Origin: Thainema sp.
Lineage (GTDB): Bacteria > Cyanobacteriota > Cyanobacteriia > Phormidesmidales > Phormidesmidaceae
DNA length: 64,000 nt
Assembly (NCBI GenBank): GCA_052168235.1
Contig: JBQLZK010000025.1
Span: forward strand, 1-64,000
Direction: 5' to 3'
Below the pieces are notes generated by a model. It was not told where the DNA came from, ran no database searches, and worked only from the letters and a program-made list of their open reading frames with translations. The translations under genes were made by a program, and so were the position numbers. Each line of letters starts with the position of its first letter. Positions within the stretch are counted from its first letter, which is position 1. Positions 41,957 to 61,134 of this stretch are shown here, in pieces.

Positions 41957-43027
41957 TTACTGCATTATTTCTCGAAGTCGTCCTTCACACAGCGACAAAA
42001 TCGATTCCGTATAAGGCCGCCGAGTAGGGATGCGCGTACTGATGTGAATGTGACGGACTAGTGTGAGTACAGTATATAGCTCAATCTCTTGCCGTAGCGC
42101 ATTGGCGATTGAAGCAGTACCTGAGGATGCTGAGCCGCTTGTTTCGGTTTGAGTGGCAGTGTGGACAGTCCAGGTTTCGATAAATGTTTCTCGCAGTTTG
42201 ATTTCTTGCGCGTTCATGGCTGCCGAGTTGCCCAGTTGACGCAGACTTTGTTCGGTGATGTGGGCAATAAAGTTACCAATGTCCAATGCTGGAGAGCCTT
42301 GGCAGTACAGATCGAGATCAACTAACCACATGCGATCGCAATCGACCAAAATCTGATCACCATAGAAATCACGATGAATACCTGTTAAGTCGCTGAGTTC
42401 TGTTGCAATCCGAGAGGCTAGCTGATCACAGGCAGCCAAAACTTGCTCAATTCGGAACTGCCACTGGGGAAACTGCTGACTGACTTGAGGCAAACGTTCA
42501 TGCAGAATACGTAGTTCATCCTGGAGGGTATGCGTTTTGCTGGTGGGAATGGGAGTACAGTGCAGCTTATGGGCTAGACCCGCAATCCGGTGCGCTAGAG
42601 AAATGTCCCCGGTCGGTAATCGATCAGTAACGGGTATACCGGGCACTTTACGCTGTAGCCACATTTGCCAAGCTGGGATGATTCCGATTGGTTGAGGGAC
42701 AGAGTAACCATCTGGACTATCAGCTGCAAATCCCTGCTGCCAAAGCGACTGCTGGAGGTGGTGGCTTTTCCAGTCGGTACCGTTGGCGCGAATTTTGCCC
42801 AGTAGAGTGAAAGATTCGGTCGTTGTTGTTAACTGGTATTCGATGAGCGCACGGCGGCCTGGTTTATGACGAACTAGCGTGGCCGCATTGACCTGGCGCA
42901 GGGTGGGAATTACTCTACACAACTGAGTTTGAGCCTGATAGCAGTCAAGAGCATCGGCTAGGAAGGGGATTCGGGGATCTAAGCTGAGTGGGTGACGGGT
43001 GGTGCGGAGGAGGTTGGGAGTGGTCAT
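41957..43027 (-). CDS. Aminoglycoside phosphotransferase-like (APH/kinase fold) protein
   Basis: [10 protein letters not shown] (catalytic loop), VDLD and PALDIGNF motifs. Confidence 0.88.
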
Positions 43028-43102
43028 GGGTAGGAGGGTAGATGGGTGGATGGGTGGATGGGTGGATGGGTGGATGGGTGGATGGGTAGATGGGTGGGAG
43101 GG
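43028..43102 (+). repeat. (GGGTGGAT)n octamer tandem repeat
   Basis: About 9 GGG-containing units directly upstream of the APH start codon. Confidence 0.85.
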
Positions 43103-43161
43103 CGGCGTTGTCTATCAGGCCTTGAAACTCAGACGGGGAGTGAATGGTGGGTGATGCTGCT

Positions 43162-45006: not shown

Positions 45007-46226
45007 AGAGGTGTTTTTTCTGGAATACGGTGTAAGTGGGGGAGTTGGCGAGTTGGCGAGTTGGGGAGTGGGAGGGTGTGGACTTGTGCGATCGCAAGTA
45101 TGCGTTGGGCGATGGTGTCCCAGGTATGGTGGGTCAGAATCTGCTGTCGGGCGGCTTGTCCCAAGTCGCGTCTCAGAGGAGGCGATTGCCAGAGCTGTTC
45201 GAGTGCTGTCGCTAAGGCCGCTTCGTTGCCTGGAGGGCAGAGCAACCCAGTGACGCCATCGTCGATCAGTTCGCTGATCTGCCCAATATGGCTGGCGACG
45301 ACGGGTAATCCTGCTGCCATATATTCGACTACTTTCAAGGGAGAGAAATAGAACTCAGCACTGGCCGGATAAGGGGCAACGGCCACATCCATTGCGGACA
45401 GGAGTTTGGGAATGGCAGCTGGGGGAACCGCGCCAGTTAGATGAGTGACAGCTTGCAGGTTGCGCTGCTGTAAATCGGCTATCAGGGACTCGCTTTGCGG
45501 CCCATTGCCGACAATCAGTAAACGAGCTTTGGGAACCCGCTGATAGAGCTGATCAAAGGCGTTAACCAGATGAGAAAGGCCATGCCAGGGTTTGAGAGAA
45601 CCGACAAAGCCAACGGTAAATGTGTCGCTGGCGGCGCGATGACTCGGCTGGCAGCGATTGAGAAAACGGTGGTGATCAACGCCGTTGGGGATGACATGGA
45701 TGTTCTCTGCACTAACCCAGTTGCTGAGATACTGCTTGACAGCTTGTGATACTGCAATGATGCCACTAGCGGATTGAAACACTCGCTGCGCTACCTGTTC
45801 AGCTACATCTCGGTTGATCAGGCTGCGGTGCTGCGCTTGCTCCTCAATTAGCGGTGCATTCACCTCCAGCAGCCCTGGAATTCCCATGTGCTGGGCATAC
45901 TCCATCGCGCTGTAACTCCACAAGGAGTAGCGTTCGTAGACCAGATCAAAGGGGCCTGCCAGCTTCAAATCAGTATATAAATCGGGATTGGTTGAGAAGG
46001 CCAGTTGCTCTCGAAGGGCAGCGTCACCTTTTGGTACGGGTGGTAAACGGTGTATTTTCAAGTCTTCTAAGTCCGATGGTGGATCACCATCTAAACGCAC
46101 GGCAAATAGCTCCACAGTTGCACCTTGATGACGAAATGCTCGAATCACCTCTTGAACATGGATAGAGCAACCCTTTTGACCGAAAACTGGAATGCCCGGA
46201 TCGGCGCAAACATAAGCAACCCGCAT
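45003..46226 (-). CDS. GT4-family glycosyltransferase
   Basis: GFVGSLKPWHG and YFSPLKVVEYMAAGLPVVAS. Confidence 0.93.
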   Translation of the reverse strand: MRVAYVCADPGIPVFGQKGCSIHVQEVIRAFRHQGATVELFAVRLDGDPPSDLEDLKIHRLPPVPKGDAALREQLAFSTNPDLYTDLKLAGPFDLVYERYSLWSYSAMEYAQHMGIPGLLEVNAPLIEEQAQHRSLINRDVAEQVAQRVFQSASGIIAVSQAVKQYLSNWVSAENIHVIPNGVDHHRFLNRCQPSHRAASDTFTVGFVGSLKPWHGLSHLVNAFDQLYQRVPKARLLIVGNGPQSESLIADLQQRNLQAVTHLTGAVPPAAIPKLLSAMDVAVAPYPASAEFYFSPLKVVEYMAAGLPVVASHIGQISELIDDGVTGLLCPPGNEAALATALEQLWQSPPLRRDLGQAARQQILTHHTWDTIAQRILAIAQVHTLPLPNSPTRQLPHLHRIPEKTPL

Positions 46227-46229
46227 AAA

Positions 46230-47483
46230 CTATACCTCCTGAAGCGTAGGGGCTGGACGAGACTGGGACTGAAAGTGCGATCGCAATTCGGCAGCATTGC
46301 GAGTGATGTCAAACTCTGTTTCAATCAGCGTTCGGGCTTGACGCGCAACCGTTTGCCGTAAATCCGGTTCTGTCAAGAACCGCTCTAGGGCCGTTGCTAA
46401 ACCTGGAGCATCATGCTGGGCAACGAGTAGACCCGTTTTCCCGTCGCGAATAATTTCGGGAATACCTGTTACATCCGTGGCGACACAGGGCGTGCCCAGT
46501 GCCATCGCTTCTAATAACGCAGTCGGTAACCCATCCCGATTGCCGTCGGAACCAATCACATAGGGCGCGGCAAAGACCGCTGCTGATTGCATGAGCTGAA
46601 AGACTTCGCGTTGAGGTCGGGGGCCAAGAATTTCCACCCAGTCATCTAAATGATGAGCTTGGATCTGCGATCGCAGTTCTGACTCTAGTGGCCCAGTGCC
46701 GACAATCTGACAGGTAAACTCACAACCTCGCTGCCGCAGGAGATGACAGGCGTCGATCAAGCGAGCCAATCCCTTCTTTTCCACTAACCGACAAACCGAC
46801 AGGATCTTGGCTGGCCGCTGGCTAGGAGGCTGGTACTGTAAGTTAGCTAAATCCATACCGTTGTAAATGCGCTGTACCGTCTGTGCGGCTGTGCCAAATT
46901 GCTGTTTAAGATAGGCAACGTTGTAGTCACTGACCGTAATGACTGCTGCGGCATCCTGAAGCTTGCGCCGCAGGTCTTCTGGCTCGACGCTGTCATGAAA
47001 GATGTCTTTTGCATGAGCCGTAAAGCTATAGGGTACATCGGCAAAATGGGCAGCGATGCGGGCGACGCTCGTGGCAACACTGCCAAAATGGGCATGAAGA
47101 TGGGTAATGCCTCGCTGCCGAATCTCTTGCGCTAGCCAAGCGGCTTGATAAACCACGCTAGCGGATTCGCCTGCGGCATACTTCAGCTTTTGCCAAAAGT
47201 TGGGTATCACCTGAGCAGCCTGCTGCATTTCAGCCCAAAGGTAACTGGCAGCGGTCGGATTGAGGCTGTTTAAGGCTGGAGTAACGCGACCTTGTGAAGG
47301 TTTCCGCAAATACGTAACAGGCGCACGCACTTGGCTGATCTTGTCCTGAAAGTGAGTGTCCACGGGAGGACGCAGGGCAAAGATGTGCAGGTCTAGTCCA
47401 GCAGCTTCATGGGCCAGAATTTCATTGACAATAAAGGTTTCTGAGTAGCGGGGATACCGTTTAACGATGTAAGCAATACGCAT
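46230..47483 (-). CDS. GT4-family glycosyltransferase (WcaL-like)
   Basis: YP..SETFI.NE, HLHAHF, RLVEKKG and DGLPT.LLEAMALG. Confidence 0.92.
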   Translation of the reverse strand: MRIAYIVKRYPRYSETFIVNEILAHEAAGLDLHIFALRPPVDTHFQDKISQVRAPVTYLRKPSQGRVTPALNSLNPTAASYLWAEMQQAAQVIPNFWQKLKYAAGESASVVYQAAWLAQEIRQRGITHLHAHFGSVATSVARIAAHFADVPYSFTAHAKDIFHDSVEPEDLRRKLQDAAAVITVSDYNVAYLKQQFGTAAQTVQRIYNGMDLANLQYQPPSQRPAKILSVCRLVEKKGLARLIDACHLLRQRGCEFTCQIVGTGPLESELRSQIQAHHLDDWVEILGPRPQREVFQLMQSAAVFAAPYVIGSDGNRDGLPTALLEAMALGTPCVATDVTGIPEIIRDGKTGLLVAQHDAPGLATALERFLTEPDLRQTVARQARTLIETEFDITRNAAELRSHFQSQSRPAPTLQEV

Positions 47484-47617
47484 GTTAGCCAAATGAGTTG
47501 AGTAAATTACATGTTTAACCAGCTAGTAGAGGGTGGACATCGCCAACCAACTTCAACCTATTGGTCGTGCTAAAGCCTTATGGTTAATGCGATACGGCGT
47601 TGTCCAGCTGTTAATCT

Positions 47618-49003
47618 TCAAGAGGCTCGGACAGTGGTCAGATGCGATTCGGATAGTAGGCACTGCAGCTCCAGCAGCAGATTGTCCAAACCACAGAGAT
47701 TCACGGCGGGGTAGGGTGGCGGCTGGATTGGCTGATGTAGCCAATCCGTTAGCGTATCGGGATTGATGGCCGTAGGGTGCAGGACATCGACTAAACCCAT
47801 CTGTTGAAGACGTTCGGCCCGAATCCACTGCTCTAGGCGAGGAGTAACGCGCGGGACTAGCAGCGTTGGTTTCTGGAAAGAAAGAACTTCGCAGGTTGTG
47901 TTGTAGCCACCCATCGCAACAATTCGACTGGCTCGTTCCAGCAGTAGCGTAGGTTCGTCTAGATAATCAATGATGCGGAGTTGGGGATTGGCTATGGCCC
48001 AAGCATGAAGCTGCTGCTTCTGTTCCGGCGGCATGAAGGGACCAGTCAGTAAGACGCCAGTTGTATGGGTCGGAAACGTCGCTTGAGCAAAGGCTGCCGC
48101 TAGTGTTGCACCGTCCTGGCCACCACCCACCAGGCACAATACCAAATCCGTTTCGGGTAGTGCCAGCGCATCTAAGCTGGCATATAAACCAGGATTGGCA
48201 TAGCGCAGTCGCGATCGCTGATCTAGATAACCCAGTGGACGAATTTTGCTAATAATATCGGGCGGTAAATCATATTCTTGACGGAGATCATATACCGCTG
48301 GATCGCCATAAACCCAGACTGCATCATAGTAGCGACGAATAGCTGTTTCATTATCGGCTCGTTGCCAATCTCGCTGGACGGCGGCTGGCGTGTCGAGCAC
48401 ATCCCGCAAACCGAGAACACAGCGGATCTGAGGCTGCGACTTAATATACTCTAAGGTTGGATCAAGCTCGCGCACGGCTCCGCGCGGCACATTGTCAACA
48501 ATCAATATATCGGGCTGGAAACTTTTAATGGCGGTGCGAATCAGTTGCGATCGCATTCCAATCATTTCTTCCAAGGTCAGCCCCAAACGGCGGGATTGAT
48601 ACTGACCATCGGCACATTTATAAAGAGCGGGTAGCGTTAGGCAGTCCACTCCAGCGGGTGTCGGCACATCACTGGCATCCCTCATGCCGCTAATCATCAA
48701 GATGTCGGCATTCAGCGCTGATGCCCCCAGAGTTTGAGCAATCAGGAGGTTGCGCCGCTTGTGACCGAGTCCCATTGTGTCATGGGAGTAGAGAGCAAGC
48801 CGCCAGCGCCGTTGGTCAGGAACAGGCGATGCAGTCGAACAGAGCTGATCGTTTAGTGTTCTTAAATTAGGTGATGGAGATGCACTAAACCGTCGCCTTA
48901 TCTGACTAGATAAGGGTTGTTTAATTTGATTGAGTGAGAACACGTTTCTTTTCCTTACAGATTGACTTTTAGAAACGTTTTCTATGAGATAGATGTTTTG
49001 CAT
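47618..49003 (-). CDS. Predicted glycosyltransferase (GT-B fold, MurG/GT28-like C-terminus)
   Basis: YSHDTMGLGH.RR, VGGGQDG, MGGYNT.CE and VPR..PR.EQ.IRA motifs; true start probably downstream of 49003. Confidence 0.87.
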   Translation of the reverse strand: MQNIYLIENVSKSQSVRKRNVFSLNQIKQPLSSQIRRRFSASPSPNLRTLNDQLCSTASPVPDQRRWRLALYSHDTMGLGHKRRNLLIAQTLGASALNADILMISGMRDASDVPTPAGVDCLTLPALYKCADGQYQSRRLGLTLEEMIGMRSQLIRTAIKSFQPDILIVDNVPRGAVRELDPTLEYIKSQPQIRCVLGLRDVLDTPAAVQRDWQRADNETAIRRYYDAVWVYGDPAVYDLRQEYDLPPDIISKIRPLGYLDQRSRLRYANPGLYASLDALALPETDLVLCLVGGGQDGATLAAAFAQATFPTHTTGVLLTGPFMPPEQKQQLHAWAIANPQLRIIDYLDEPTLLLERASRIVAMGGYNTTCEVLSFQKPTLLVPRVTPRLEQWIRAERLQQMGLVDVLHPTAINPDTLTDWLHQPIQPPPYPAVNLCGLDNLLLELQCLLSESHLTTVRAS

Positions 49004-49019: not shown

Positions 49020-49320
49020 TCAGCTAGGTTTTTGTTAGAGATTCGGGCTTTGGGGCTTAATGACTTATTAATGTGTCAGGCGGCGATTGCTCCGCTATGG
49101 GGCAGAACATCCCGCTTGGCAATAAGCTGGTTAAGCCTAAGTTAATAATGGCGTTCGTCTCTAAAGGTTCAGTGAAGCCAAAATGAGAAAGCTTTCATAT
49201 ACGAGTTCCCGTCCTGATGCGAATTCTTTTATATGCTTTCTCTCCGTAAGCCATGCCGTTTTGCGTGAAGCTATAGGCGGTTTCTTGACCTGCCTCATCC
49301 TCTCAGCCCCAGAACCGCAT

Positions 49321-49956
49321 ATGAACAGCCCCTCTTCGACTATCCGATCAAACCGCTTAGGCTGGGTTGGGTTTGTGATTGCGACTTTGGCTATCCTGCT
49401 CGTCTCTCACCTGATCCTCTATCCTCAGCCCACACCCGAAACGCTCTTGCTGGCCCTACGGGTCACGTCGTTGACCACAGCCATTCCACTGTGGCTGGTG
49501 TTCGTTGCCCAACCCATTGCCCTCGTTGCTTCAGAGGTAGCCCATTGGATTCAAGCCAATCGCCGCTATTTGTGGCTCACGCTAACGGCATCCCATCTCA
49601 TGCACCGGTATCAAATCGGGCTGTACTACCAAGTTGGACAACAGTGTCCGTTGATTGTGTGGCTGGTGACGCTGCCCGTTTGGATTGTGTTGGTCATTGT
49701 TGCCGCCATTGAATGGGTACGTCCCCAATGGCTCACTGTCCCCGCTACGACATCAACACTCATGAGACTGAGATCGGCTTATTGGCTTGGTTTAGGTTAC
49801 GTCTGGCTGATTTTTACATTGGCCTTTGGCCTCGGAGCCATTGCTCGTCATCTGCCTTTCTACAACATTCCAGCCCTTCTTCTATTTTTAGCCGGGGGCG
49901 CACTCCACGTAATGGGATGGCTTCGACGCGCTGCAGCACCTCCCTCTGGTGTCTAA
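49321..49956 (+). CDS. Hypothetical multi-TM protein (ferric-reductase-like TM domain)
   Basis: About 6 TMs; RRYLWL....SH..H motif; likely start 49321. Confidence 0.6.
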   Translation: MNSPSSTIRSNRLGWVGFVIATLAILLVSHLILYPQPTPETLLLALRVTSLTTAIPLWLVFVAQPIALVASEVAHWIQANRRYLWLTLTASHLMHRYQIGLYYQVGQQCPLIVWLVTLPVWIVLVIVAAIEWVRPQWLTVPATTSTLMRLRSAYWLGLGYVWLIFTLAFGLGAIARHLPFYNIPALLLFLAGGALHVMGWLRRAAAPPSGV

Positions 49957-50144: not shown

Positions 50145-53100
50145 CTAAAAATCAGCAATTTCTGGAGCTGAGGTACTCCCAATCTGAACGAAGGCAGCCC
50201 ATACTGCTGGGTCAGGATAAACCTCACGGGTTGAAAGCATGGCTTGGCGAAGCGCTTGAGCGGTATCTAAACCTTGGAGTCGCTGTTGGTGGAAGGCAAT
50301 CATTAGCTCTGCTGTCGGAGCATCTGGCACTTGCCACAGGGAGACAACGACTCTGGGTACACCAGCCGCCATGAATGAGCGAGACAGACCAATCACACCG
50401 TCACCCGTAATTCTGCCTCGTCCCGTGTCGCAAGCGCTCAGAATGACCAGATCAGCCTGCAATGGCAGATCAAGAATTTCAGCCGCTGTTAAAAAGCCGT
50501 CATTTCGGGCATCTGGAGCTAGAGCAACGGCTCCCTGTAGCGGTTGGGATTCATCAAACTGTCCATGAGTCGCTAAGTGAATGAGGCTGGCAGAAGAAAG
50601 CTGATCTTTGATTTGTGACTCTGTTGCGACATCACCGAGAAGAGGAGAGGTTGAGAGTAGCTCGGCAATCGACGCGGCTTCGGTCTCAGCACTGGGTAGA
50701 GGAGCATAGTTGCCAGGCATGGGGCTGGGATTGCCTACAATCAGGGCTTCTGTAGTGATAGCTCTTGAGTTGGTAGTCGTCTGATTAAGCAGTTCAAGGG
50801 CTTGGATAGAGGGAGTTATGGCAGGTGTGTATTGCTCAATTAAGTATCGTCCCTGATCGTCCTGGAGAGCAGCGAAGGGAACGAGGAAGAGATGTTCTTG
50901 GGGCACGAAGATAACAGGGGCTGTTGGATCAGAGGGGAGCAAATCCGAGATCGGATCAATCAGCAGAGCGTGCAGTTGCTGAAGTGGGTTAGCTTTTGGT
51001 GTTGCTTCGTCCACTCGATAAATTTGATCCACGGGCAGCACGGGATTGGGCAATACAAATTCGGGATGCGTCACGGTGACCGTTTGGCCATCAGCAGACA
51101 CTGAAACCACTTGGTAGGGAGCGATATTGGGCAAGTCTCCCTGGCGTCTGACAAAGTCTCCTGGGCGAATGGGTGTACTTCTAGCGGCATCGGCCACTAT
51201 ACCAATGCCGCGATTGTTGGCCACAGCGGTATCTAAGCTGCGACCCGTGAGCGCTAAGCGCGCCTCTGTGACGACACTTTGGACAGAGCTGGCAGAAAGC
51301 GAATCGCGTAGACTGACTTGCCGGAACTGCACGGTGCCGTTGGGTTGCACAACCCAGATGTAGAGTCGGGCATCACGCGGTTCAATCGGATTTTGGACAG
51401 AAACCGCGTGGGGTGCTTCAGCGGCTTGGTCGCGAATAATGGAATATTCCACTAGAGTCGCGTTTTGAGAGCGAGAGATTTGCTGCATTTGGGCAAGCGT
51501 AGGAGAAGACAATTCGCCTGCCTGCCTCGGATCAAACTGCTCGCGGGCCAGCAATTCGACAAACGCACGAGCGCGGCCTCGTTCAGAGATTTCGAGAGCA
51601 GGTGCGATTTTACCCTGGGTGACGAGAACTTCCTGGAGATTGCGATAGGCGGCTAGTTGAGTTTCAAAGATAGATACCTTGAAGTCATTGTTGGTGCCTA
51701 ATCCAGCGCGGAGGGATTCCCAGATCGCAACGGCACTGAACAGAGCCTGTTCGGCTTCCGGCAATCGTTCCAGATAGAGCAACGCATTACCCAGATTGGT
51801 GAGCGCGATCCCTTCGCCCAAGCTGGCTCCCAATTGGCGGACAATCGTCAGGCTCTCTTGACTGTAGCGATAGGCTTGCTCGTAGTTTTGCTGATACGCA
51901 TAGGCTGTACTGAGTCCCAGCAAAATCTGGGCCGTTTCTAGCTCGTTGTTTAAAGTGGTGGCGAGTGCCAGCCCGTTTTCGTAAGCTGCGATCGCATCTG
52001 CGAAATTGCCTTGAATGGCTAATGTGGCCCCCAGGTTGCCGTAGGCTTGCATTTCACCATAGGTATCGCTTGCCCCACGGGAAATGTCGAGACTGGTTTT
52101 CTGATAGTCAGCGGCTTGAGCATAGTTTTTTTCGGCAAAGTAGGCGTTGCCCAAGTTGCGATAGGTGAGAGCTTTCCACTGAGGCGCAGTCTCAATCGGC
52201 ATCACCTCTAAACTGCGTCGATAGAAATCAATGGCTGTGGCATAGTCTCCTAAGGCCGCATAGGCTGCCCCAATGCCACCCAAGGCAATCCCTTTTTGGG
52301 TGGGATCATTGATAGCCGTTGCTTTTTCGAGCTGCTGTTGATGTAAATCGAGCGCGGTTAGATAATCGCCCAGGACAAAGTATGAAATGGCCAGGTTGTT
52401 CAGAGAGTAGGCAACCCATTGCGAATTATTTTGGGCAGTAGCGGTGGCTAGGTTTCCTTCATAGCAATCAATCAGGCGCTGATAAACAGTTGAAGTGCGA
52501 TCGCGGGCTGCTGTTGCTTGAATTTTTTCGGCTTCGGCCTGACAGTTCTTGAGTTGCTGATTGACGGTTGAGTTTGAGTTAGCTGTGGATTCCGTGGTCG
52601 GCTCTGTTGTCGCCTCTTCTGGACGTGTGGCAACAGAATCAGCTCCAGGCTCTCCGGTTGACGATTCCGCCTCACTGGCAGAGTCTTCCGCTACATCTAC
52701 CGAAGCAGAGGGGGAAGATTCTGCTGGTAACGTTCCAGCAGCCGTATCTTCTACAGAAGCGCTAGAGGAATCAGCAGAAGGATCTTCAGGCTGAGGCTCG
52801 GTCTGCGGATCAACTTGCGGATCAACCTGTGGATCAACCGGAGAATCATCAGGGGGTGGATCATCAGGCTCCTGTAGCTGGCCAAAATCCGCTGTTCCAC
52901 CTGGATCTCCGGGTTGACCAAAATCGGGCGACGTTTCAATGGTAAATCCCGAACTCGGAAAGTTGGCGGCGTTCCCTCCACTGTTACCGCTAGAACCGTT
53001 TCCTGTCCCCGTAACCACTGTGGCTTCCACAATCAACCAGGACGGCTCCGGCAGCACCATGCCGAGAATACTTAGTTCTTCGAGTAGAGGTGATTGGGCT

Positions 53101-55817
53101 ACAGGCACTCCGCGCAAAGCGACTTGCTCTCGATTTGAGGGCAGAACCAGGGATAGGGGCGGAGTGGCTTCCAGCGTCAGAGCAGACGTGTCAGGGATTT
53201 CAGTTTCAGGTTTACCACCATTGCCATTACCGTTACCGTTGCCATTGCCGTTGCCGTTGCCATTACCGCCGTTCGAAGGAGCGATATCAATTGGAATTTG
53301 AACGGCTTCTGAACGCGACACACCATCGGTCGCCTGTAGCGTGAAAGCTGTGACCTCTCCGCTCATGCCTTCTAAAGGAGTGTATTGGAGTTGATCCGTG
53401 GTAGCAACTTCATCTCCCGGTTCGATAGCTACTCCATTTCTCAGCAGAGTACCGTTGATTGAATTCACAATGAATGTCGTGTTATCGCTGTTGAGATCTG
53501 TGATTTCTGGATTCAGGTTGCCTAGTGTAAAAGATACGGGTTGGTCAATTCTGGTAGAGGGTAGTGGTTCAGTAACGGACAGCGTAGGTGAGGTATTAAC
53601 TGAGGTGATGGTGATGTTAGGCGTGGGATTTGCGCTGCCGCCAGTGGCTAAGACTGGAAAGCTGCCGCTAGCGAGGACACTGTCGGCTGCGATCGCACCT
53701 GCAGTACCGTTAGGGCTAGTGCTCCCAACCACCAACGGCACGTTGTTCGGTCCGCCATCATGTTGAATCGTAACCGTGCCGCCACCAAGATTGTCTACTG
53801 CGCGGATTGTGGTGTTGGGTGCAGAGGCGACTGAACTTGTTCCGCTCACCGTCCCGTTGGCAATAACCGTAACACTGCCTGCCGGGGCAACGCTAGCATT
53901 ACTGCTGGCATCAATAGATTCGAACGCAACATTGCTATCTGAATTGATCGTGACTTGGCCGCCTGCTACAGAATTAAACGTCGTGTCGATATGGCCAATT
54001 TGAACATCTGCACCGGAAATGCTGACGTTTCCTCCTCCCGTTTCCAGTCGTGTACCTGGACTCGCGTTAACTAAACCGCTTCCATTACCATCAGAGTCTG
54101 CTGTTAAATTCACCGTGAGCGATCCGCCAGCGACAAACTCAATATTGTCATTTAAAGTAATGTCGTTGATGGCTGCTAATGAGAGCGTTGCAGCAGGCCC
54201 AGAGGCTTTTTGAATCGTGGCTCCGGCTTGCTGGGTAATGTTTCCGGCTTCAGTGCCGCTGCTGTTGGTGACAATTAAAACGTTGGTGCCACTGTTGAGC
54301 GCACTGTTAATGTTCGCGACCTCAATCACAGTTGAATTAATCGGCCCACCTCCACCAGAAACAATGGTAATATCCGTCGGATCGATCAGCCAGGTGCCGC
54401 CAACTCCATTAGGGGCGCTAGTATCGGGTGTGCGAGATAGATTGAGCCGAACACCAGCAGACGTTTCAATTAATCCACCATTGCCTGATAGATCGCCGCC
54501 GCGTGCAGTTAACGAACCATTCACAGTGGCGGTCGTATCGGCCCAAACAACGATACTGCCCCCATTTTCAGAGCGCGTCGTGGCATTGGCTGAGACAACA
54601 GAAGCAGCATCAATTTGCGTTGTATTTGCGCGGGGTAAACTATTTCCTCCTTGGACATCACCGCCGATTCGCACGCTGCCGCCACCAAAGGTTCCTGAGG
54701 CATTCGCTTCAGCATTGAGTAGCGAAACTTGTTGTCCTAGCAGGTAGATTTGTCCGCCGCGATCGCCTTCAGTGGAAAGGGTTCCCGATGCGATGACGCT
54801 GCCTAGTTCAATGGGAGCCGTTGCCGAGGTGGAAGCAAGTCGGATCGTGCCATCCGGGTCTTGAACCAGAGTCAGATTGTTGTCGGTAAGAGAGTTCCCG
54901 CCCGTTAGCAGTTCCGGTAGCGATAAGGGATCGAACGGTTGCTGACTGTTGGGGTTTACGGACGGTGTAATCTCCAGGCTAAGGAGCATATTCCCTTGGC
55001 TGAGGCGCACCCGATTTTCTCCCGGTACGGCGAGCAGCGTAATGGTGCCCTCGGGAGCAGTGAGATTGCCCAGACTCACCACTTCCCCGCCCATCAGCGT
55101 TAGGTCTTGGCCTGTATCGACCGTCAAATTACCCAGATTCAGAATCGTTCCCGGTAGCTCACTGGTAAAGGCAAACTGATTCGGTGTTCCAGTCAGCGCC
55201 TGATATCCGGCTGGGTTCATGACATCCAACCAGGTATCGCCAAAGCCGATCTGATTGGCCGTCGTTGCTGTGAAAGCGCCATTGAGGTTGAGCGTAGCGT
55301 CCGGGCCAAAGATAATACCTGCCGGATTGATCAGATAAAGGTTGGCGTTGCCGCCGCTCACCTGGAGTAGACCGTTAATGATGGAGGCATTTCCCCCGTT
55401 GACGGTGCCCAGAATATTCTGAATTTCGGGAGCAGCGATGAAGTTAGCAATCTGGTCGGCACTGAGGCCAAATTCCTGGAAGCTGTGAAACAGGTTAGTG
55501 CCGTCACCGGAACGCTGCCCCTCAGTGATGTCAAGGCGGTTGCCAGTGGGAGTCACCACTGTCCCTGTGCCATCACTGCTGGGAACAATGGCTTGAGCAA
55601 CAAGCTGATCTGGCGAGACTTGGACTGAGTGATTACGCCTGGTGCCCAAAAACTCTGGCTGTATCGATTCCGGTGAGGAGACAAGCTGAACTGCGATCGC
55701 ACCTAATAGATCACCAGTTTCGGTTGTTTCAGCATAGGAAGCCGTGACAGGTTGCTGCGTCGGAGGCAGGCTAGGGGGGATGATGAGGACATGGGGGGGC
55801 AAGTGGGGAATGACCAT
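50145..55817 (-). CDS. Filamentous haemagglutinin (TPS) N-terminal domain + cadherin-like + acidic linker + TPR + CHAT caspase-like protease
   Basis: NLFHSF.EFGL and NPAGIIFG TPS motifs, beta-helix region, TPR repeats (NNLA, GNLG), catalytic HLATHG and LSACDTG. Confidence 0.92.
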   Translation of the reverse strand: MVIPHLPPHVLIIPPSLPPTQQPVTASYAETTETGDLLGAIAVQLVSSPESIQPEFLGTRRNHSVQVSPDQLVAQAIVPSSDGTGTVVTPTGNRLDITEGQRSGDGTNLFHSFQEFGLSADQIANFIAAPEIQNILGTVNGGNASIINGLLQVSGGNANLYLINPAGIIFGPDATLNLNGAFTATTANQIGFGDTWLDVMNPAGYQALTGTPNQFAFTSELPGTILNLGNLTVDTGQDLTLMGGEVVSLGNLTAPEGTITLLAVPGENRVRLSQGNMLLSLEITPSVNPNSQQPFDPLSLPELLTGGNSLTDNNLTLVQDPDGTIRLASTSATAPIELGSVIASGTLSTEGDRGGQIYLLGQQVSLLNAEANASGTFGGGSVRIGGDVQGGNSLPRANTTQIDAASVVSANATTRSENGGSIVVWADTTATVNGSLTARGGDLSGNGGLIETSAGVRLNLSRTPDTSAPNGVGGTWLIDPTDITIVSGGGGPINSTVIEVANINSALNSGTNVLIVTNSSGTEAGNITQQAGATIQKASGPAATLSLAAINDITLNDNIEFVAGGSLTVNLTADSDGNGSGLVNASPGTRLETGGGNVSISGADVQIGHIDTTFNSVAGGQVTINSDSNVAFESIDASSNASVAPAGSVTVIANGTVSGTSSVASAPNTTIRAVDNLGGGTVTIQHDGGPNNVPLVVGSTSPNGTAGAIAADSVLASGSFPVLATGGSANPTPNITITSVNTSPTLSVTEPLPSTRIDQPVSFTLGNLNPEITDLNSDNTTFIVNSINGTLLRNGVAIEPGDEVATTDQLQYTPLEGMSGEVTAFTLQATDGVSRSEAVQIPIDIAPSNGGNGNGNGNGNGNGNGNGGKPETEIPDTSALTLEATPPLSLVLPSNREQVALRGVPVAQSPLLEELSILGMVLPEPSWLIVEATVVTGTGNGSSGNSGGNAANFPSSGFTIETSPDFGQPGDPGGTADFGQLQEPDDPPPDDSPVDPQVDPQVDPQTEPQPEDPSADSSSASVEDTAAGTLPAESSPSASVDVAEDSASEAESSTGEPGADSVATRPEEATTEPTTESTANSNSTVNQQLKNCQAEAEKIQATAARDRTSTVYQRLIDCYEGNLATATAQNNSQWVAYSLNNLAISYFVLGDYLTALDLHQQQLEKATAINDPTQKGIALGGIGAAYAALGDYATAIDFYRRSLEVMPIETAPQWKALTYRNLGNAYFAEKNYAQAADYQKTSLDISRGASDTYGEMQAYGNLGATLAIQGNFADAIAAYENGLALATTLNNELETAQILLGLSTAYAYQQNYEQAYRYSQESLTIVRQLGASLGEGIALTNLGNALLYLERLPEAEQALFSAVAIWESLRAGLGTNNDFKVSIFETQLAAYRNLQEVLVTQGKIAPALEISERGRARAFVELLAREQFDPRQAGELSSPTLAQMQQISRSQNATLVEYSIIRDQAAEAPHAVSVQNPIEPRDARLYIWVVQPNGTVQFRQVSLRDSLSASSVQSVVTEARLALTGRSLDTAVANNRGIGIVADAARSTPIRPGDFVRRQGDLPNIAPYQVVSVSADGQTVTVTHPEFVLPNPVLPVDQIYRVDEATPKANPLQQLHALLIDPISDLLPSDPTAPVIFVPQEHLFLVPFAALQDDQGRYLIEQYTPAITPSIQALELLNQTTTNSRAITTEALIVGNPSPMPGNYAPLPSAETEAASIAELLSTSPLLGDVATESQIKDQLSSASLIHLATHGQFDESQPLQGAVALAPDARNDGFLTAAEILDLPLQADLVILSACDTGRGRITGDGVIGLSRSFMAAGVPRVVVSLWQVPDAPTAELMIAFHQQRLQGLDTAQALRQAMLSTREVYPDPAVWAAFVQIGSTSAPEIADF

Positions 55818-55855
55818 GACCTAATACTCCAATCAAAACTAGAGGGCAATTGGTG

Positions 55856-56596
55856 TTATTCGACAGGTGTTGGCTCAGTTTCAGCAACCTGGCAGCAGTC
55901 AGTTAGCGGCTGGTTCACCAAGTCACCGAGCTGAACGAAATCATGTTCAAGTAAGCTGGCCCAGACTTCCAGCAGCGCTTCGGACGAGGGATTGCTCAGT
56001 CGCAGGTCGCCCAATTCAGTGAGGGTGTCGTACCACAAACCATCGCTAGCTAAAAGGTCAATCCGCTCTTGGGGAGAGGCATTGGCCAGTTGTTCAGCAA
56101 ATTCTGGAGAAGGAGATCGCCGCACTACTATGCCGCTTGTCCAGGGATCAGCCTCGTCTTCACTGGGACAATCAACCGACACTGTCCAACGATAGGGTTC
56201 ACCGACAGTTAGTTCTGGAACGTCCACGGGAGCAGGCAAACGGCTGATGCCGACCTGGGCAATATCAGCATAAGTAGCTTGATACAATACCTGATCAGTG
56301 CTGGCCTGTGTGAGCGTCAGATGAAGGGTGCGATTCGGTTCAGACACATACACCCAGAACGTGGGTTGCGGCTGTAGCGTTTCGCCCCAGTGGGTTTGGG
56401 TGGGTTCCAAAACAACAATGCCGCAGCCACGACTGCCCGCATCGCGTACCGTGCTACTGCGACCGGGAGCACCGCGATTGGGTGGATTATAGGGAACCGC
56501 ATTTGCCACCGATAGAAAACTAAAGAGGCTAACTGCGATCGCACTCACACCTCCGCAAACCATCCGATACAAGCCTTTATCAATCCGTTTCATCAA
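55856..56596 (-). CDS. DUF928 domain protein (exported)
   Basis: Signal peptide, PP.RGAPG...AGSRGC, PTFWVY, YRW.V..C and GLWYDTL motifs. Confidence 0.88.
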   Translation of the reverse strand: MMKRIDKGLYRMVCGGVSAIAVSLFSFLSVANAVPYNPPNRGAPGRSSTVRDAGSRGCGIVVLEPTQTHWGETLQPQPTFWVYVSEPNRTLHLTLTQASTDQVLYQATYADIAQVGISRLPAPVDVPELTVGEPYRWTVSVDCPSEDEADPWTSGIVVRRSPSPEFAEQLANASPQERIDLLASDGLWYDTLTELGDLRLSNPSSEALLEVWASLLEHDFVQLGDLVNQPLTDCCQVAETEPTPVE

Positions 56597-58998
56597 CGTA
56601 ACCTCCTACGAACGTCCGTTTGAGCCAGCAGGCGGGCAGCGATCAGCGTGCCGCCGCTGGTGCTGATCAGACCAATCGCTGCTGGGACGAGTGGCACCCA
56701 TAAGCCTAAATTCAGCAACCCCCATGCCAAGCCATATAGCCCTAACATAGCCAGCCCGGAAGCCAAGGCTGTGAAGCTAAGGCGCTGGCATCGCCAGCCG
56801 ATTAAACCGCCGATGCCAGCCCAGCCCACCATCCACAGCGTTTCAGCCCATTCTGGCCAGGTGCTGATCGGCGCTCGACCATCCAACGCGGCTGCGAGCA
56901 GTTGATTAATCATTTGAGCCTGTAGGATGACGCCGGGAATGCGCTCACGCGGCCATGCCTGAGCGCCTGCGGGCGTTGTGAAGTAATCGGTGGGATTGGA
57001 AACGGGTGCTGACATGCCGATTAACACCACATAATGCTGCAAACTGCTGATCGGGTTGCCGTTACGGTCTTGCAACGAGAAATTGTCGCTCAGGACATCG
57101 GACAGCGTCACCCGCTGCATAAACCGATCCGGGTCAGCGTAATTCAGCAGAACCTGAAAGCCCCAGTGATCTAAGCTGTGATACGGCCCGGAGTTGGCTG
57201 CCAAAGGCACGAGCTGAGCTTTGCCGAGCTGTAGGTGATCGTTGGGCAGGTTTTCCGGTTGGATATTCGCAGTCGTATAGAGGTGTTGGATGGCCAGTAG
57301 CGCACTGAGGGAAAAGCTAGTGGCACAGGGGTCGTCCGTCTCCGGCTCCATAAACAGCAACTGGCGGCGCATGATGCCATCGTGATCCTCCAAGACGTTG
57401 CTAAAGCCAAGCCGATCGCTGGGCAGTTGGGGCGGTGGAGCAATACCGCTTTGGGCATCGTTCCGCGCAATTTGGACGCTACACAAACCGACTAGATTGT
57501 CTTGCTCAGCCAACTGAGTTTGTAGAGAGCTGTTTGGATCGATGCGATCGCGAAAAATATCCAATCCAATCACGCTGGGATTGTACGGCTCCAGCCGATC
57601 AATTGCTGCCGCCAGGACATCATCGGGCAGGGGATAGCCATAGCGGTTCACGTCATCTTCCGTTGCTTCGATCACCAGAATTCGTTGGGGAGTAACTTGG
57701 GGCAATCGCTGTTGCAGTAAGCGATCATAAGTCCGCAGTTCCCAAGCCTGAAAACCGCCCATGCTTCGGATCACCAGGATTAAGGCTGATACCGCTAGGC
57801 TAGAGAACAGCGCCAGTCGCCATTGAGGTTGAGGCAACAACGGTTCAGCGGGGGGTGGGGGCATTGCTGGCGCTGCTTCAGCTCGTTGCAGCTCTGCCCA
57901 AGTGGGTGGGGCATCAGGTGCCGTTTGGTACAGTACAGGCAACCAACTGGCGCAGGGAAACTCGCTTTCCATTCCTTGCAGCCGCTCCCGTGCCTGACGC
58001 AACGCGAGAGGTAAGGACTGACCCGCCGCATAGGCAGGCAAAAGATAGGTGAGAAAGAGCTGAGCAATCCGATCCGGTACGGGCTGCCGCATGACGATGA
58101 TCTGGGGCAGATTCAGTGGCTCTAGGTCATGGGCGAGTCCCAGTCCGTCGCAGGAGTTAAATATGGCCAGTTTCAAACCACGGGCAATGGCCCGCCGTAA
58201 GCCGTACTTCAGCTCTTCCAGGGTTAGACTTTCCTGAGGATTGAGAAAAATCCGTCCAGTCACCTCAGAACTGCTACGAATATTCTCACTAGCACTAGCA
58301 CTAGCACTGTCGCTGTGTCCGGCAAAGAACAGAATATCCCAGGGGCATTCCCAGAGCTGATCGGTAATCTCCTGCCGCTGCGGTTCCACCAGGAAGGTCA
58401 CGTTGGCATTTGGTAACGAGGAAAGCAAAGCGCGATCGCAACTAATATCAATCCCCGCACTATGACCCAAAATCGCCAGGATATTGACCTGATTAGAGGC
58501 CACAGGTGCGATCGCAGATTGCCGTTTGAAGTGGGGTGCACTCAGAGTCACCTCGGCGTGCGTGTAGCGGTCTAGGAATTCCCAGAGGTGCCAGGGAAGC
58601 TGGTGCAAAGCGGGATTAGCGGTGCGAATCACCAACCGGATGCTGTCGTTGGGATGCAGTTCTTCCCGCAGCAGACGATCAATGGCACGAAAGGTCTCTG
58701 CACTCAGCCAGCGATTAAATTGCTGTCGCAGTGTCTGAGCCATGCGTTCACAGGCTTTGACCTGCTGAATTGAGCCGATATAGACGATTTCTTTGGGCCG
58801 AATTCGATTCGGTGCATCGAGCTGACGATAAACCTGTTGCCATGCATTGAGCCGCTCTTGCAAATCGGGATCGGCGGGCAGAGCACCCGTCATTACGGCA
58901 TCGGGGCGCTGTCCGTCAGCTCCAATTTCCATCGTGACCCGGAAACCTTGGCTAGCAAGGTCGCCATCGAAAGTCAGGGTAACGAGCTGGTGACGCAT
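56593..58998 (-). CDS. CHAT protease + TM + CHASE2 sensor + 3 TM
   Basis: ILFFAGHS and AIFNSCDG catalytic motifs; E...YD..L, VIGLDIFRD, DGIMRR and PGV..QAQ CHASE2 motifs. Confidence 0.9.
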   Translation of the reverse strand: MRHQLVTLTFDGDLASQGFRVTMEIGADGQRPDAVMTGALPADPDLQERLNAWQQVYRQLDAPNRIRPKEIVYIGSIQQVKACERMAQTLRQQFNRWLSAETFRAIDRLLREELHPNDSIRLVIRTANPALHQLPWHLWEFLDRYTHAEVTLSAPHFKRQSAIAPVASNQVNILAILGHSAGIDISCDRALLSSLPNANVTFLVEPQRQEITDQLWECPWDILFFAGHSDSASASASENIRSSSEVTGRIFLNPQESLTLEELKYGLRRAIARGLKLAIFNSCDGLGLAHDLEPLNLPQIIVMRQPVPDRIAQLFLTYLLPAYAAGQSLPLALRQARERLQGMESEFPCASWLPVLYQTAPDAPPTWAELQRAEAAPAMPPPPAEPLLPQPQWRLALFSSLAVSALILVIRSMGGFQAWELRTYDRLLQQRLPQVTPQRILVIEATEDDVNRYGYPLPDDVLAAAIDRLEPYNPSVIGLDIFRDRIDPNSSLQTQLAEQDNLVGLCSVQIARNDAQSGIAPPPQLPSDRLGFSNVLEDHDGIMRRQLLFMEPETDDPCATSFSLSALLAIQHLYTTANIQPENLPNDHLQLGKAQLVPLAANSGPYHSLDHWGFQVLLNYADPDRFMQRVTLSDVLSDNFSLQDRNGNPISSLQHYVVLIGMSAPVSNPTDYFTTPAGAQAWPRERIPGVILQAQMINQLLAAALDGRAPISTWPEWAETLWMVGWAGIGGLIGWRCQRLSFTALASGLAMLGLYGLAWGLLNLGLWVPLVPAAIGLISTSGGTLIAARLLAQTDVRRRLR

Positions 58999-59099
58999 GG
59001 GGGCTGTTTAGGGTTACAACTTGAAGGGGAAAGATTATCCAGTGATACTGACTCCGGCGAGAAAGAATCCAAATATCGGTTGTGTATCAAGGCCGTTGA

Positions 59100-59174
59100 G
59101 ATCCCCCTAAATCCCCCTTAATAAGAGGGACTTTGAGCCAATTCCCCCCTTCCTAAGGGGGACTAGGGGGGATC
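59100..59174. repeat. Cyanobacterial C/G-run hairpin repeat
   Basis: GATCCCCCTAAATCCCCCTT...CCCCCCTTCCTAAGGGGGACTAGGGGGGATC. Confidence 0.75.
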
Positions 59175-59221
59175 TTCTACACATGCTCAACATCACAGTC
59201 AGCAACTTTTCAAACATCCTT

Positions 59222-60187
59222 TTACACCTGAAACACTTCGGTCAGGATGCGATCGCGCCAGCTAACCTGAACGCTGAATCGCTCACCCGGTTCGGCCTCA
59301 AACTTCAGTTGAATCGCCTCTGTCTGGCGGGCTTCGGCCTGCATCACGACTGCATTTGACTCATCCAGCACCCTGAGCTGTAACGCACTGGGCAGATGAA
59401 GCTGGTCACCTGCCGAGCGAATCTGCACCCAAATCTCAATATTGTCCTGATCCTGGGGAATCAGTCCCACCAAAAGATTGACCGTCGTGGCTGCCGCTCC
59501 CTCTCCCAGCCGCAGCGGCTTAACCTGGCCAATTTCCGGGACAGGCTGGGGTTCCGTCTCCATTGATTGAGATGAGCCGCGAAAGGCAAACGACGGCGAC
59601 GGCACAGCCAGTTCAGTCAAGGCATCGGATAGAGCTTGCCAACCCGCTGTCGTTACGTCCTGCAACCAGCGACTTAAATAAACGGGCATGGGTTCCGCAG
59701 CGCACTGCTCCAGATAAGCACCCAAGTCTGCCAAGGGGCGCAGCTCTGATAGCGGGACGGAGAGCGCATCACCTGTAAGCGCGGGTAAGGTATCGATAAA
59801 TCCCAGCAGCGTCGCCTGTCGCAAGGATGCGTCAAGTTGAACACCGATATAGCCCACGCGATCGCAGATCACGTCAGCCGGAATTGCGATCGCAGTTTCA
59901 GCGGGCAACACAACTCGACATTCCAGTCGCCCCACCTGCGTGACCAGCAAATCGGCAACATCCAGCAGTGTTTGTTGGGCTGGATCATGGCTGTAGCTGC
60001 GCTCCAGGTCAACATCGTAGCCCAGCGTATCCAGATAAGTTGCCACCGCATAAACGGCCAGGGTATTGAGATAAACGCGCTTTTGCACAGCGGGCATGGA
60101 ATGGCGCTGCTGAAATCTCTTAGCCTGACTATGAGCTGTCAACGCTAATGGAATAGTAACGGTAGATAAGTCGCGGATGTCGCTCAT
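59222..60187 (-). CDS. DUF1822 family protein
   Basis: VYLNTLAVYAV..YL, ADL....G.LECR, IGVQLD..L..A.LLGF, LS.WL.....GWQ and GE.FSV motifs. Confidence 0.88.
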   Translation of the reverse strand: MSDIRDLSTVTIPLALTAHSQAKRFQQRHSMPAVQKRVYLNTLAVYAVATYLDTLGYDVDLERSYSHDPAQQTLLDVADLLVTQVGRLECRVVLPAETAIAIPADVICDRVGYIGVQLDASLRQATLLGFIDTLPALTGDALSVPLSELRPLADLGAYLEQCAAEPMPVYLSRWLQDVTTAGWQALSDALTELAVPSPSFAFRGSSQSMETEPQPVPEIGQVKPLRLGEGAAATTVNLLVGLIPQDQDNIEIWVQIRSAGDQLHLPSALQLRVLDESNAVVMQAEARQTEAIQLKFEAEPGERFSVQVSWRDRILTEVFQV

Positions 60188-60228
60188 GGTACTCGTCTCA
60201 GGTGTACGACATGGAAAAAGGCAGTGGG

Positions 60229-61134
60229 CTAGAGCAAGCGCTGAAATTGGGGGGCAAACTTATCGCAGCATCGCTGAAAAAAGCTACTCAGAGTGGGGAT
60301 CTTGATGTCGAGATCTGTGGCAATGTCGTCCCAGCTTTGGCCTGCAAATCGAGCAAGAGCAATGACTTGAAAGCTAGCGTCGGGTCGATTGCGAATATGG
60401 GTGGCTTGAAACACTCCTGCTGGATCGGTGGCAATATGCTGGCGCACCTCATCGGCCAGCGAAGATGATTCGGGTGTAGGAGCTGCGATCGCATCTAAAT
60501 CATTCAGCGAGGGCAACTCCTGCGCATCTTGCTCATTGAAGTCGCGGCGACACTCAATAATCTGGCGATCGAGGCGGAAGTTAACCCAGTTCATAAACTT
60601 TTGCGCTGTACCGCGCTCCGGATCATAGGTGTCGATTTTACGACAAACATAGGTCAGAGTTTGGTTGAGCGCCTCCTCATAGAGCAAGTCATAAAAAGGA
60701 GGCGAGAATTTGCTGCGGTGCGGATGAGCTAACCGCCCCGATCGCCGAATTGCCTCAATTAATTGGGTTAGGGCATGTTGCCGCAGCGGACTGCGGGCAG
60801 GATGTCGCTGAGCCTCTAAAGCCAACTGCTTGAGCTGATCATCGCTGAGAGCAGCTCGCAGCGCTTCTGCTTGGACAGCAGCGCTCCAGTCCTGAACGGC
60901 ATCGCGATCGCGCTGATAGCGACCAACCCCGACTGATACAGCGATCAATAGCTGTTCACGTATCTGATCGCGCAGAGCCTGATAGATCTCATGATTGGGA
61001 TCGTCCTTGGGAGGACGGCCCAATTTTTGCGATCGCATCAGCACGGCTACGATTTCCGACAGCGCTTGAGCGCGACTGCTTTCGTCAGTCGCGTGTTGGG
61101 CTTGATGCAGATATTGCTCCAGTTCTGATTCCAT
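60229..61134 (-). CDS. Sigma-70-like/HetZ-like putative transcription factor
   Basis: YEEAL..T..Y.C.KID.YDP.RG...FMNWVN region-2-like segment; C-terminal HTH W..IA..L.IKI.TLSSFFQR. Confidence 0.78.
   Translation of the reverse strand: MESELEQYLHQAQHATDESSRAQALSEIVAVLMRSQKLGRPPKDDPNHEIYQALRDQIREQLLIAVSVGVGRYQRDRDAVQDWSAAVQAEALRAALSDDQLKQLALEAQRHPARSPLRQHALTQLIEAIRRSGRLAHPHRSKFSPPFYDLLYEEALNQTLTYVCRKIDTYDPERGTAQKFMNWVNFRLDRQIIECRRDFNEQDAQELPSLNDLDAIAAPTPESSSLADEVRQHIATDPAGVFQATHIRNRPDASFQVIALARFAGQSWDDIATDLDIKIPTLSSFFQRCCDKFAPQFQRLL

Follow-up and report, generated by a model that had tools for sequence, protein, structure and literature searches.

The described systems that come closest to the locus considered here, a putative five-gene operon in a 64,000-nucleotide stretch of DNA (hereafter "the window") from the cyanobacterium Thainema sp. 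(GenBank assembly GCA_052168235.1, contig JBQLZK010000025.1, positions 1 to 64,000), are those delineated computationally by Kaur, Iyer, Burroughs and Aravind (2021, eLife; PMC8195603), in which EACC2-caspase proteins with variable C-termini, CHASE2 among them, are linked with extracytoplasmic function (ECF) sigma factors and DUF1822 proteins, and for which proteolytic activation with a sigma factor output was proposed and autoproteolysis predicted. The locus occupies positions 50145-61134 of the minus strand and encodes, in the order of transcription, a divergent ECF-like sigma factor (g1), a DUF1822 protein (g2), a receptor-caspase with a CHAT and a CHASE2 domain (g3), a DUF928 protein predicted to be exported (g4) and a protein in which a two-partner secretion (TPS) domain, tetratricopeptide repeats (TPRs) and a second CHAT domain are fused (g5). 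As in the systems of Kaur et al., a caspase domain, preceded by an N-terminal region that may correspond to the constant one of that group, is followed by a variable C-terminus (in this case, CHASE2 with transmembrane (TM) segments, i.e., a sensor), and the genes for the sigma factor and the DUF1822 protein lie next to, and directly upstream of, that for the caspase. The core triad of sigma factor, DUF1822 and caspase is already in print (PMC8195603); the present analysis adds a division into two modules, tested in this genome, a description of the domains of DUF1822 and a specific candidate for the cut site. No experimental study of the system was found in the literature, subscription journals having been mostly outside the search.

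The locus, nevertheless, departs from the published account in several respects: a search of the main text and of 12 of the 13 supplementary files of that paper (PMC8195603) gave no mention of "DUF928", a TPS exoprotein and a TPR-CHAT protease are here one polypeptide, the AlphaFold2 model of g2 combines a nuclease-like N-domain with a beta-sandwich instead of TPRs, and no cut site in DUF1822 is named in that paper.

Outside of this group, the nearest precedents are proteases that act on regulatory partners. In the type III-E CRISPR Craspase, the TPR-CHAT protein Csx29 cuts Csx30, a binder of the sigma factor RpoE, and this cleavage is thought to release a transcriptional response (PMC9825189); there, as here, the genes for a CHAT-family protease, for an ECF-type sigma factor and for a partner that belongs to no known family lie together, although the trigger is a target RNA bound by Cas7-11 and not whatever reaches a periplasmic CHASE2 sensor. 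No likeness in sequence or fold between DUF1822 and Csx30 was seen (Csx30 is not among the fold matches listed, which is weak evidence), and no CRISPR genes are present among the window open reading frames (ORFs) scanned. HetF, a cyanobacterial CHAT protease of Anabaena PCC 7120, cuts PatU3 between R117 and S118, the Arg being essential (PMC9457339), and g2 would likewise be a regulatory partner cut once, after an Arg (motif F-R-G/S); g3, however, scores far below the cut-off of the HetF family and has the architecture of a CHASE2 receptor, and PatU3 is unrelated to DUF1822 and acts without the involvement of a sigma factor. Both of these precedents had been quoted in an initial reading of the window's sequence by a model (the first-pass annotation), and both are in print as quoted. 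Two caspase-family proteases with a sigma factor in one locus, or an anti-sigma factor whose cutting releases a sigma factor, are also known from the SAVED-CHAT, PCaspase and PCc-sigma cascade and from CalpL-CalpT-CalpS (bioRxiv 10.1101/2023.06.23.546230), which, unlike the present locus, are cytoplasmic and switched by cyclic oligoadenylates. Together with Csx29-Csx30-RpoE, these are the only experimental analogues in the literature found, and all of them are CRISPR-linked. Here, the inner membrane is predicted to separate the protease of g3 from that of g5, and one cannot, in that case, simply cut the other. In the sigmaE-RseA system of Escherichia coli, an envelope signal leads to proteolysis of the anti-sigma factor and to release of the sigma factor. 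An envelope signal would similarly be turned into proteolytic sigma release by the locus described here, but through a caspase-fold protease fused to the receptor and a putative anti-sigma factor that is soluble and of an unrelated fold.

We read the locus, giving this reading about an even chance of being right, as a trans-envelope, protease-gated transcription switch composed of two recurrent modules with a single CHASE2 receptor in common. The exported g5 (a TPS-type exoprotein with a TPR-CHAT protease) and g4 would act outside the cytoplasm on, or together with, the periplasmic CHASE2 domain of g3; a change at CHASE2 would switch on the cytoplasmic caspase/CHAT domain of the same protein; this would cut g2 within its disordered linker, after Arg203; the ECF-like sigma factor g1, presumably held inactive by g2 until then, would be freed or activated and would redirect RNA polymerase to a putative regulon. 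A cascade of this kind had been put forward in the first-pass annotation, and it seems plausible and is partly supported by comparative evidence: co-conservation, topology, the fold of g1 and the printed precedents all speak for it, while the divergent genes proposed as its targets are not conserved beyond the nearest relative, g2 matches no known anti-sigma family and the idea is not new, its core having already been published as a prediction.

The comparative evidence comes from 80 loci anchored on a DUF1822 alignment, with one genome per species. A sigma-like gene lies directly upstream of the DUF1822 gene in all 70 loci with at least 1 kb of upstream sequence, and, of the 67 loci with at least 3 kb on the downstream side, 53 have an EACC2-caspase gene there, which includes CHASE2 in 48. 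Where at least 4.5 kb of downstream sequence is available, DUF928 is found beside caspase-CHASE2 in 45 of 46 loci and in none of the 17 without caspase-CHASE2, including the four whose caspase lacks CHASE2 (0/4); DUF928 tracks CHASE2, not the caspase. Among the 36 fully flanked loci that have both caspase-CHASE2 and DUF928, a TPS gene is present in 22 and a large CHAT gene in 23 (either in 26, both in 19), the two being fused in five. The order of sigma-like gene, DUF1822, caspase-CHASE2 and DUF928 is, in other words, shared across cyanobacteria, and TPS and TPR-CHAT genes are often found in the vicinity; this disposes of a lack of co-conservation as a refutation of the cascade. Since dozens of genomes show this arrangement, the locus is more than a product of chance.

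The view that an extracytoplasmic set and a caspase/DUF1822/sigma set are joined at one shared CHASE2 receptor is drawn from a survey of paralogous loci. The 7.54 Mb genome to which the window belongs has four DUF1822, eight DUF928 and 18 CHASE2 genes; a caspase-CHASE2 gene follows three of the four DUF1822 genes, and all four are preceded by an ORF left unannotated by a Pfam scan. At the three further DUF1822 loci (L001 on contig C40, L002 on C9 and L003 on C115), the preceding ORF belongs to a second family (439-512 amino acids, 38-41% mutual identity), the members of which resemble g1 only at the level of a motif (DP-x-x-G...W), and two of these loci have caspase-CHASE2 after DUF1822, with exported TPR-CHAT genes flanking. 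As for DUF928, five of the eight genes adjoin CHASE2 receptors with rather diverse outputs (the caspase of the window, a histidine kinase, GGDEF-EAL, GGDEF and a Ser/Thr kinase), a large CHAT gene being present in four of these five loci and a TPS gene in three, and in 22 of 30 other genomes CHASE2 lies no more than 1.5 kb from the DUF928 gene with the best score. The input set of TPS, TPR-CHAT and DUF928 also accompanies CHASE2 kinases and cyclases.

Small ORFs that share 34% identity with each other were also seen right after the paralogous caspase-CHASE2 genes of the same genome (L002:12579-13547, plus strand, and L003:3409-4104, minus strand); the N-terminus of the one in L003 is signal-like, and its product resembles DUF928 faintly (E 7e-5 in a search of six sequences, not meaningful alone); both may be divergent DUF928 analogues. 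In a metagenome-assembled genome from the Synechococcales (L017), a set of CHASE2 (1196 amino acids), DUF928 and CHAT genes lies 2 kb off a full sigma/DUF1822/caspase-CHASE2/DUF928/TPS set.

The receptor itself, g3, has a CHAT domain at residues 110-368 (Pfam PF12770; E 1.4e-11, 44.8 bits vs. a cut-off of 24) and CHASE2 at residues 405-732 (PF05226; E 8.8e-55, 186.5 bits vs. a cut-off of 26.3; C25:56803-57786 by genome search). Hydropathy indicates one TM segment (TM1, 392-416) before CHASE2 and hydrophobic C-terminal segments at 744-788; since a single TM segment separates the two domains and hydrophobic segments follow CHASE2, the caspase is predicted to be cytoplasmic and CHASE2 periplasmic, the orientation being suggested by hydropathy and by a positively charged C-terminal tail. 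This topology fits the first-pass description of a CHAT domain on a membrane sensor with an extracytoplasmic CHASE2 domain. The N-terminal region (residues 1 to ~105) is EACC2-like, with G12, L40, W53, Y57, R65, W97, L98 and F103 kept in at least 90% of 63 relatives, and the sole NCBIfam match of the protein, HetF, is weak (E 0.0027, 16 bits vs. a cut-off of 1200). Both CHAT domains of the locus retain the His/Cys dyad, as had been claimed: H228 (AGHS) and C283 (NSCD) of g3 are each found in 58 of 63 caspase-CHASE2-type proteins, and H1751 (ATHG) and C1796 (SACD) of g5 are present in 31 of 31 large CHAT proteins. By these features, g3 and g5 are assignable to the CHAT family of clan CD cysteine proteases, and proteolysis is predicted for the two of them.

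The proposed substrate, g2, matches PF08852 (DUF1822) with 196 bits (cut-off 25). Its AlphaFold2 model, with a predicted local distance difference test score (pLDDT) of 82.6, consists of an alpha/beta N-domain (residues 10-165), a helix (171-192), a disordered stretch (194-213) and a beta-sandwich (218-320). The linker (residues 194-213; pLDDT below 50) is rich in indels, and it contains a motif of the form hydrophobic-x-hydrophobic-Arg-small (F-A-F-R-G in g2). The Arg of this motif, Arg203, recurs in 45 of 46 sequences and, in a diverse set of 154 DUF1822 proteins, in 141, with Lys in another four; at the 67 loci, it is present in 66 cases, the remaining one having Lys. Because HetF cuts PatU3 after an essential Arg and because Arg203 is near-invariant in a disordered linker, R203|G204 is proposed as the site at which g3 might cut g2; the analogy suggests as much, and such an Arg in such a linker is circumstantial support for DUF1822 as the substrate. 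The N-domain has PD-(D/E)xK nucleases as its best matches in the fold-search lists, in which Ig-like (immunoglobulin-like) matches of g2 also appear; the canonical Lys of (D/E)xK, however, is Arg in 127 of the 154 DUF1822 proteins and Cys, Leu or Ile in the remainder, which makes nuclease activity of g2 doubtful. Neither Csx30 nor TRADD nor an anti-sigma N-domain is among the matches listed for g2, in a search dominated by the beta-sandwich and covering the N-domain only partly. This bears on the TRADD-N label that DUF1822 proteins carry in the supplement of Kaur et al. (PMC8195603), a fold in which the turn between beta2 and beta3 has a conserved Ser: S66 is invariant in 46 of 46 DUF1822 sequences but could not be assigned a place on the TRADD-N topology, and TRADD is absent from the 50 fold matches listed. 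A search of representative proteins with a DUF1822 profile returned 2574 proteins at E<=0.001, the 150 listed being 248-442 amino acids long with no obvious fusions among them; a homologue search for longer proteins likewise gave no longer fused forms at E<=0.001, which is weak evidence.

The designation of g1 as a sigma-like factor stands by its fold and fails by sequence match to models of sigma-70 regions 2 and 4. The predicted structure shows sigma-2 and sigma-4 folds in the correct order, with a helical N-terminal extension (residues 1-95), which is absent from minimal ECF sigma factors, a sigma-2-like part (~97-205), a disordered linker (203-214) and a sigma-4-like helix-turn-helix (~226-300), and its top fold match is E. 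coli sigmaE (structure 1or7); Foldseek gives an E of only 0.07 to sigmaE. Sequence-family tests, on the other hand, failed: no Pfam family was matched at E<=0.01, a profile of 41 homologues gave 0 matches to PDB sequences at E<=1, and the NCBIfam ECF models were matched weakly (13.7-18 bits vs. cut-offs of 222-301, the best being SigK with E 0.0017 and 18 bits vs. 226), so that, as far as the model goes, g1 is like a sigma factor at the level of the fold. Its linker has nearly invariant L207, P208, L210 and L213 and no conserved basic residue.

On the input side, g4 is a clear DUF928 protein (PF06051, E 8.4e-40, 136.9 bits vs. a cut-off of 26) with a hydrophobic signal-like segment at residues 12-35 that ends in ANA, from which export is predicted. 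Its start is likely the ATG at 56593, which shares one base with the TGA stop codon of g3 (TGATG) and has AGGAGG 8 nt upstream, an arrangement that points to translational coupling of the two genes; the alternative is the TTG at 56596 picked by the ORF caller, which would give a 4-nt overlap with g3. In g4 and 55 relatives, the signal peptide is followed by a flexible-looking motif (G-x-P...GG[ST]R-x-x-C), and R56 (55/56), C58 (55/56) and C143 (54/56) are conserved; the Cys residues may form a disulfide pair, and the Arg may be an Arg-specific cut site.

The last gene product, g5, comprises a TPS domain (residues 80-288; PF05860, 145.2 bits vs. 33.5; TIGR01901, 75.8 bits vs. 29.1), a beta-helix-like passenger, a linker at ~845-1090 (window 52600-53300) with GN dipeptide repeats and then a long stretch of low complexity that is acidic and rich in Pro, TPRs at ~1135-1400 and a CHAT domain at 1611-1881 (E 1e-75, 255.3 bits vs. 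a cut-off of 24). The "FHA" in the title that the first-pass annotation had given to the locus is right if a filamentous-haemagglutinin-type TPS domain is meant, and it can mean only that, because a forkhead-associated domain was not found in g5 by the Pfam and NCBIfam scans. With its N-terminal TPS domain and long beta-rich passenger, g5 resembles TpsA proteins of two-partner secretion (filamentous haemagglutinin; PF05860, TIGR01901), from which it differs in its C-terminal cargo, a TPR-CHAT protease, and in two things that were looked for and are considered further below, a signal peptide and a TpsB gene in the window. The fused form is seen only in the nearest relatives (loci L011-L014, L016 and L025, with L015 being cut by a contig end), and a Pro-rich N-terminus is common to these fused orthologues, whereas clear signal peptides are present in the TPS proteins that stand alone at other loci. 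Of 17 stand-alone TPR-CHAT relatives, 15 have an N-terminus that resembles a signal peptide under a crude hydropathy rule.

A number of these and other observations weigh against the proposed switch. The nuclease-like N-domain of g2 is left unexplained by an anti-sigma role, and no known anti-sigma domain (e.g., zf-HC2 or the RsdA type) was found in g2, for which Pfam gives only PF08852 and NCBIfam nothing, although such a lack of a family match lowers the case for g2 being a known anti-sigma factor and not that for its working like one. An adjacent caspase gene is absent from 14 of the 67 sigma-DUF1822 pairs, several of which sit among housekeeping genes, and Arg203, which was considered as a marker of an adjacent caspase, was rejected as such: it is kept equally with a caspase (52 Arg and one Lys of 53) and without one (14 of 14), so the motif does not track the adjacent caspase. 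Neither a TPS nor a large CHAT gene is found within 10 kb in 10 of the 36 fully flanked loci, DUF928 is a neighbor of only five of the 18 CHASE2 genes of the genome, g5 has no Sec signal peptide recognizable by a hydropathy threshold (its N-terminus being the Pro-rich one mentioned above), and the window has no TpsB gene, three ShlB-type genes being located on contigs C54, C4 and C50. The counts themselves, moreover, were obtained with custom hidden Markov models built from paralogues of the window's own genome, and the 80 loci are relatives and, as such, not independent samples.

Would some other arrangement of the same parts fit better? The locus might be a conflict or cell-death system as understood by Kaur et al. 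(2021): the receptor-caspase would process itself when danger is signaled, DUF1822 would serve as an adaptor or as a nuclease-fold effector that is latent until cleavage, and the sigma factor would only add a transcriptional arm. We regard this as unlikely, considering the replaced (D/E)xK Lys, a sensor that faces the periplasm and is associated with exported proteins and not with cytoplasmic sensors of invaders, and the flanks of the locus, where general scans (PADLOC not having been searched) gave glycosyltransferases, an ABC transporter and unannotated ORFs and no known defense genes. The tightness with which the sigma-like gene and DUF1822 go together (in 70 of 70 loci, compared with 53 of 67 for the pairing with the caspase) could also mean that DUF1822 is not a substrate at all and instead bridges the sigma-like protein to the caspase as an adaptor or co-factor, with the caspase cutting the sigma-like protein (e.g., in its N-terminal extension) or only itself. 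PCaspase does cleave a putative sigma factor directly (bioRxiv 10.1101/2023.06.23.546230), autopeptidase activation was proposed by Kaur et al. (PMC8195603), and g1 offers both its 95-residue extension and a disordered linker; that linker, however, is the one without a conserved basic residue, the near-invariant Arg being in g2, and an adaptor role strikes us as rather improbable.

It is just as doubtful, in our opinion, that the two halves of the locus are merely separate neighbors, with TPS, TPR-CHAT and DUF928 serving surface-protein secretion or processing that CHASE2 only monitors, and with the sigma-like/DUF1822 pair as an independent regulator. Each half does occur by itself, as the TPS/TPR-CHAT/DUF928 set is found beside CHASE2 kinases and cyclases in whose vicinity neither a sigma factor nor DUF1822 is encoded, sigma-DUF1822 pairs are found with no caspase, CHASE2 or DUF928 gene, and TPS and large CHAT are both missing from the 10 full loci counted above. 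The caspase, on the other hand, is part of the CHASE2 receptor itself and is located between both sets in the 45 of 46 loci, and g3 and g4 appear to be translationally coupled; as both sets share one protein, full independence of the halves is unlikely. Pairs of the solitary kind were seen in L029, L038, L049, L085, L056 and L074, among housekeeping or unrelated genes; none of the flanks examined in these loci contain caspase, CHASE2 or DUF928 genes, so the pair can stand alone.

The protease-gated switch with g2 as the substrate could also have a second proteolytic step: in a two-caspase relay, the TPS-borne CHAT protease, at the surface or in the periplasm, would cut exported DUF928 (e.g., at Arg56), making or destroying a CHASE2 ligand, upon which the cytoplasmic caspase would cut DUF1822 after Arg203 and free the dedicated sigma factor. 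Such a relay is a speculative extension, and a quite unlikely one at present. CHASE2 is a widespread receptor domain for which the literature found names no defined ligand, and one substrate, PatU3 of HetF, has been mapped for cyanobacterial CHAT/caspase proteases in the same literature. Were the relay true, it would be the first defined input for a CHASE2 receptor and a bacterial counterpart of receptor-proximal caspase activation, and DUF928/CHASE2 would represent a sensing pair of general use, common to kinases, cyclases and proteases. The cut after Arg203, if it takes place, would extend the protease-released sigma factors, known so far from CRISPR-associated systems, to a version with a membrane receptor, and the prediction of this residue turns a gene-neighborhood prediction from 2021 into a biochemical experiment with one mutant. 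Because its CHASE2 receptor is linked to DUF928, to a protease predicted to be exported and to a sigma factor of its own, this one locus can be approached experimentally from either side of the membrane.

All five genes are on the minus strand at the coordinates first reported and confirmed by the ORF list, and the overlap of two of them (g3 and g4) is real; their coordinates, and those of the candidate cut site, are given below.

Coordinates within the window of the five genes of the putative operon and of the candidate cut site in g2
Feature	Position	Strand	Basis
g1, divergent ECF-like sigma factor, 301 amino acids	60229..61134	-	Sigma fold; no Pfam family
g2, DUF1822 protein, 321 amino acids	59222..60187	-	Pfam PF08852
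g2, candidate cut site, codons of residues 200-204 (F-A-F-R-G)	59576..59590	-	Conserved linker motif, from which the cut site is proposed
g3, receptor-caspase, 801 amino acids	56593..58998	-	Pfam CHAT and CHASE2; hydropathy
g4, predicted exported DUF928 protein, 246 amino acids	55856..56596	-	PF06051; signal-like N-terminus
g5, TPS-TPR-CHAT fusion, 1890 amino acids	50145..55817	-	Pfam TPS, TPR families and CHAT; TIGR01901

The divergent genes next to g1, which had been suggested as possible targets of the cascade, were rejected as conserved targets, as they are kept only in the nearest relative (the first in one and the second in two of the 80 related loci); the start of the first, given as 61854 in the first-pass annotation, is at 61755 according to the ORF list. 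An alignment of the 300 nt 5' of g1 with those of six close orthologues revealed no convincing common block that could represent a shared promoter motif. On the other side of the locus, 3' of g5, a gene for a 257-amino-acid multi-TM protein without a family (49183-49956, plus strand) is followed by three glycosyltransferase genes, an ABC exporter and an APH-type kinase gene (41957-49003, minus strand), and the first two of these downstream genes (49183-49956 and 47618-49003) have a tblastn match in 0 of the 80 related loci.

Elsewhere in the window, two adjacent genes on the minus strand (12526-16200 and 16204-19893) encode giant WD40-repeat proteins of 1224 and 1229 amino acids, the first ~600 residues of which lie outside the WD40 families among the 25 matches listed for each; these proteins may be of the STAND type. 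A nitronate monooxygenase (PF03060) is split across two overlapping minus-strand ORFs (10073-10651 and 10648-11139; profile positions 5-71 and 194-331), which could represent a frameshifted gene, a split gene or an assembly error, and the 111-amino-acid short-chain dehydrogenase ORF at 477-812 of the plus strand, covering profile positions 2-78 of 195, looks truncated.

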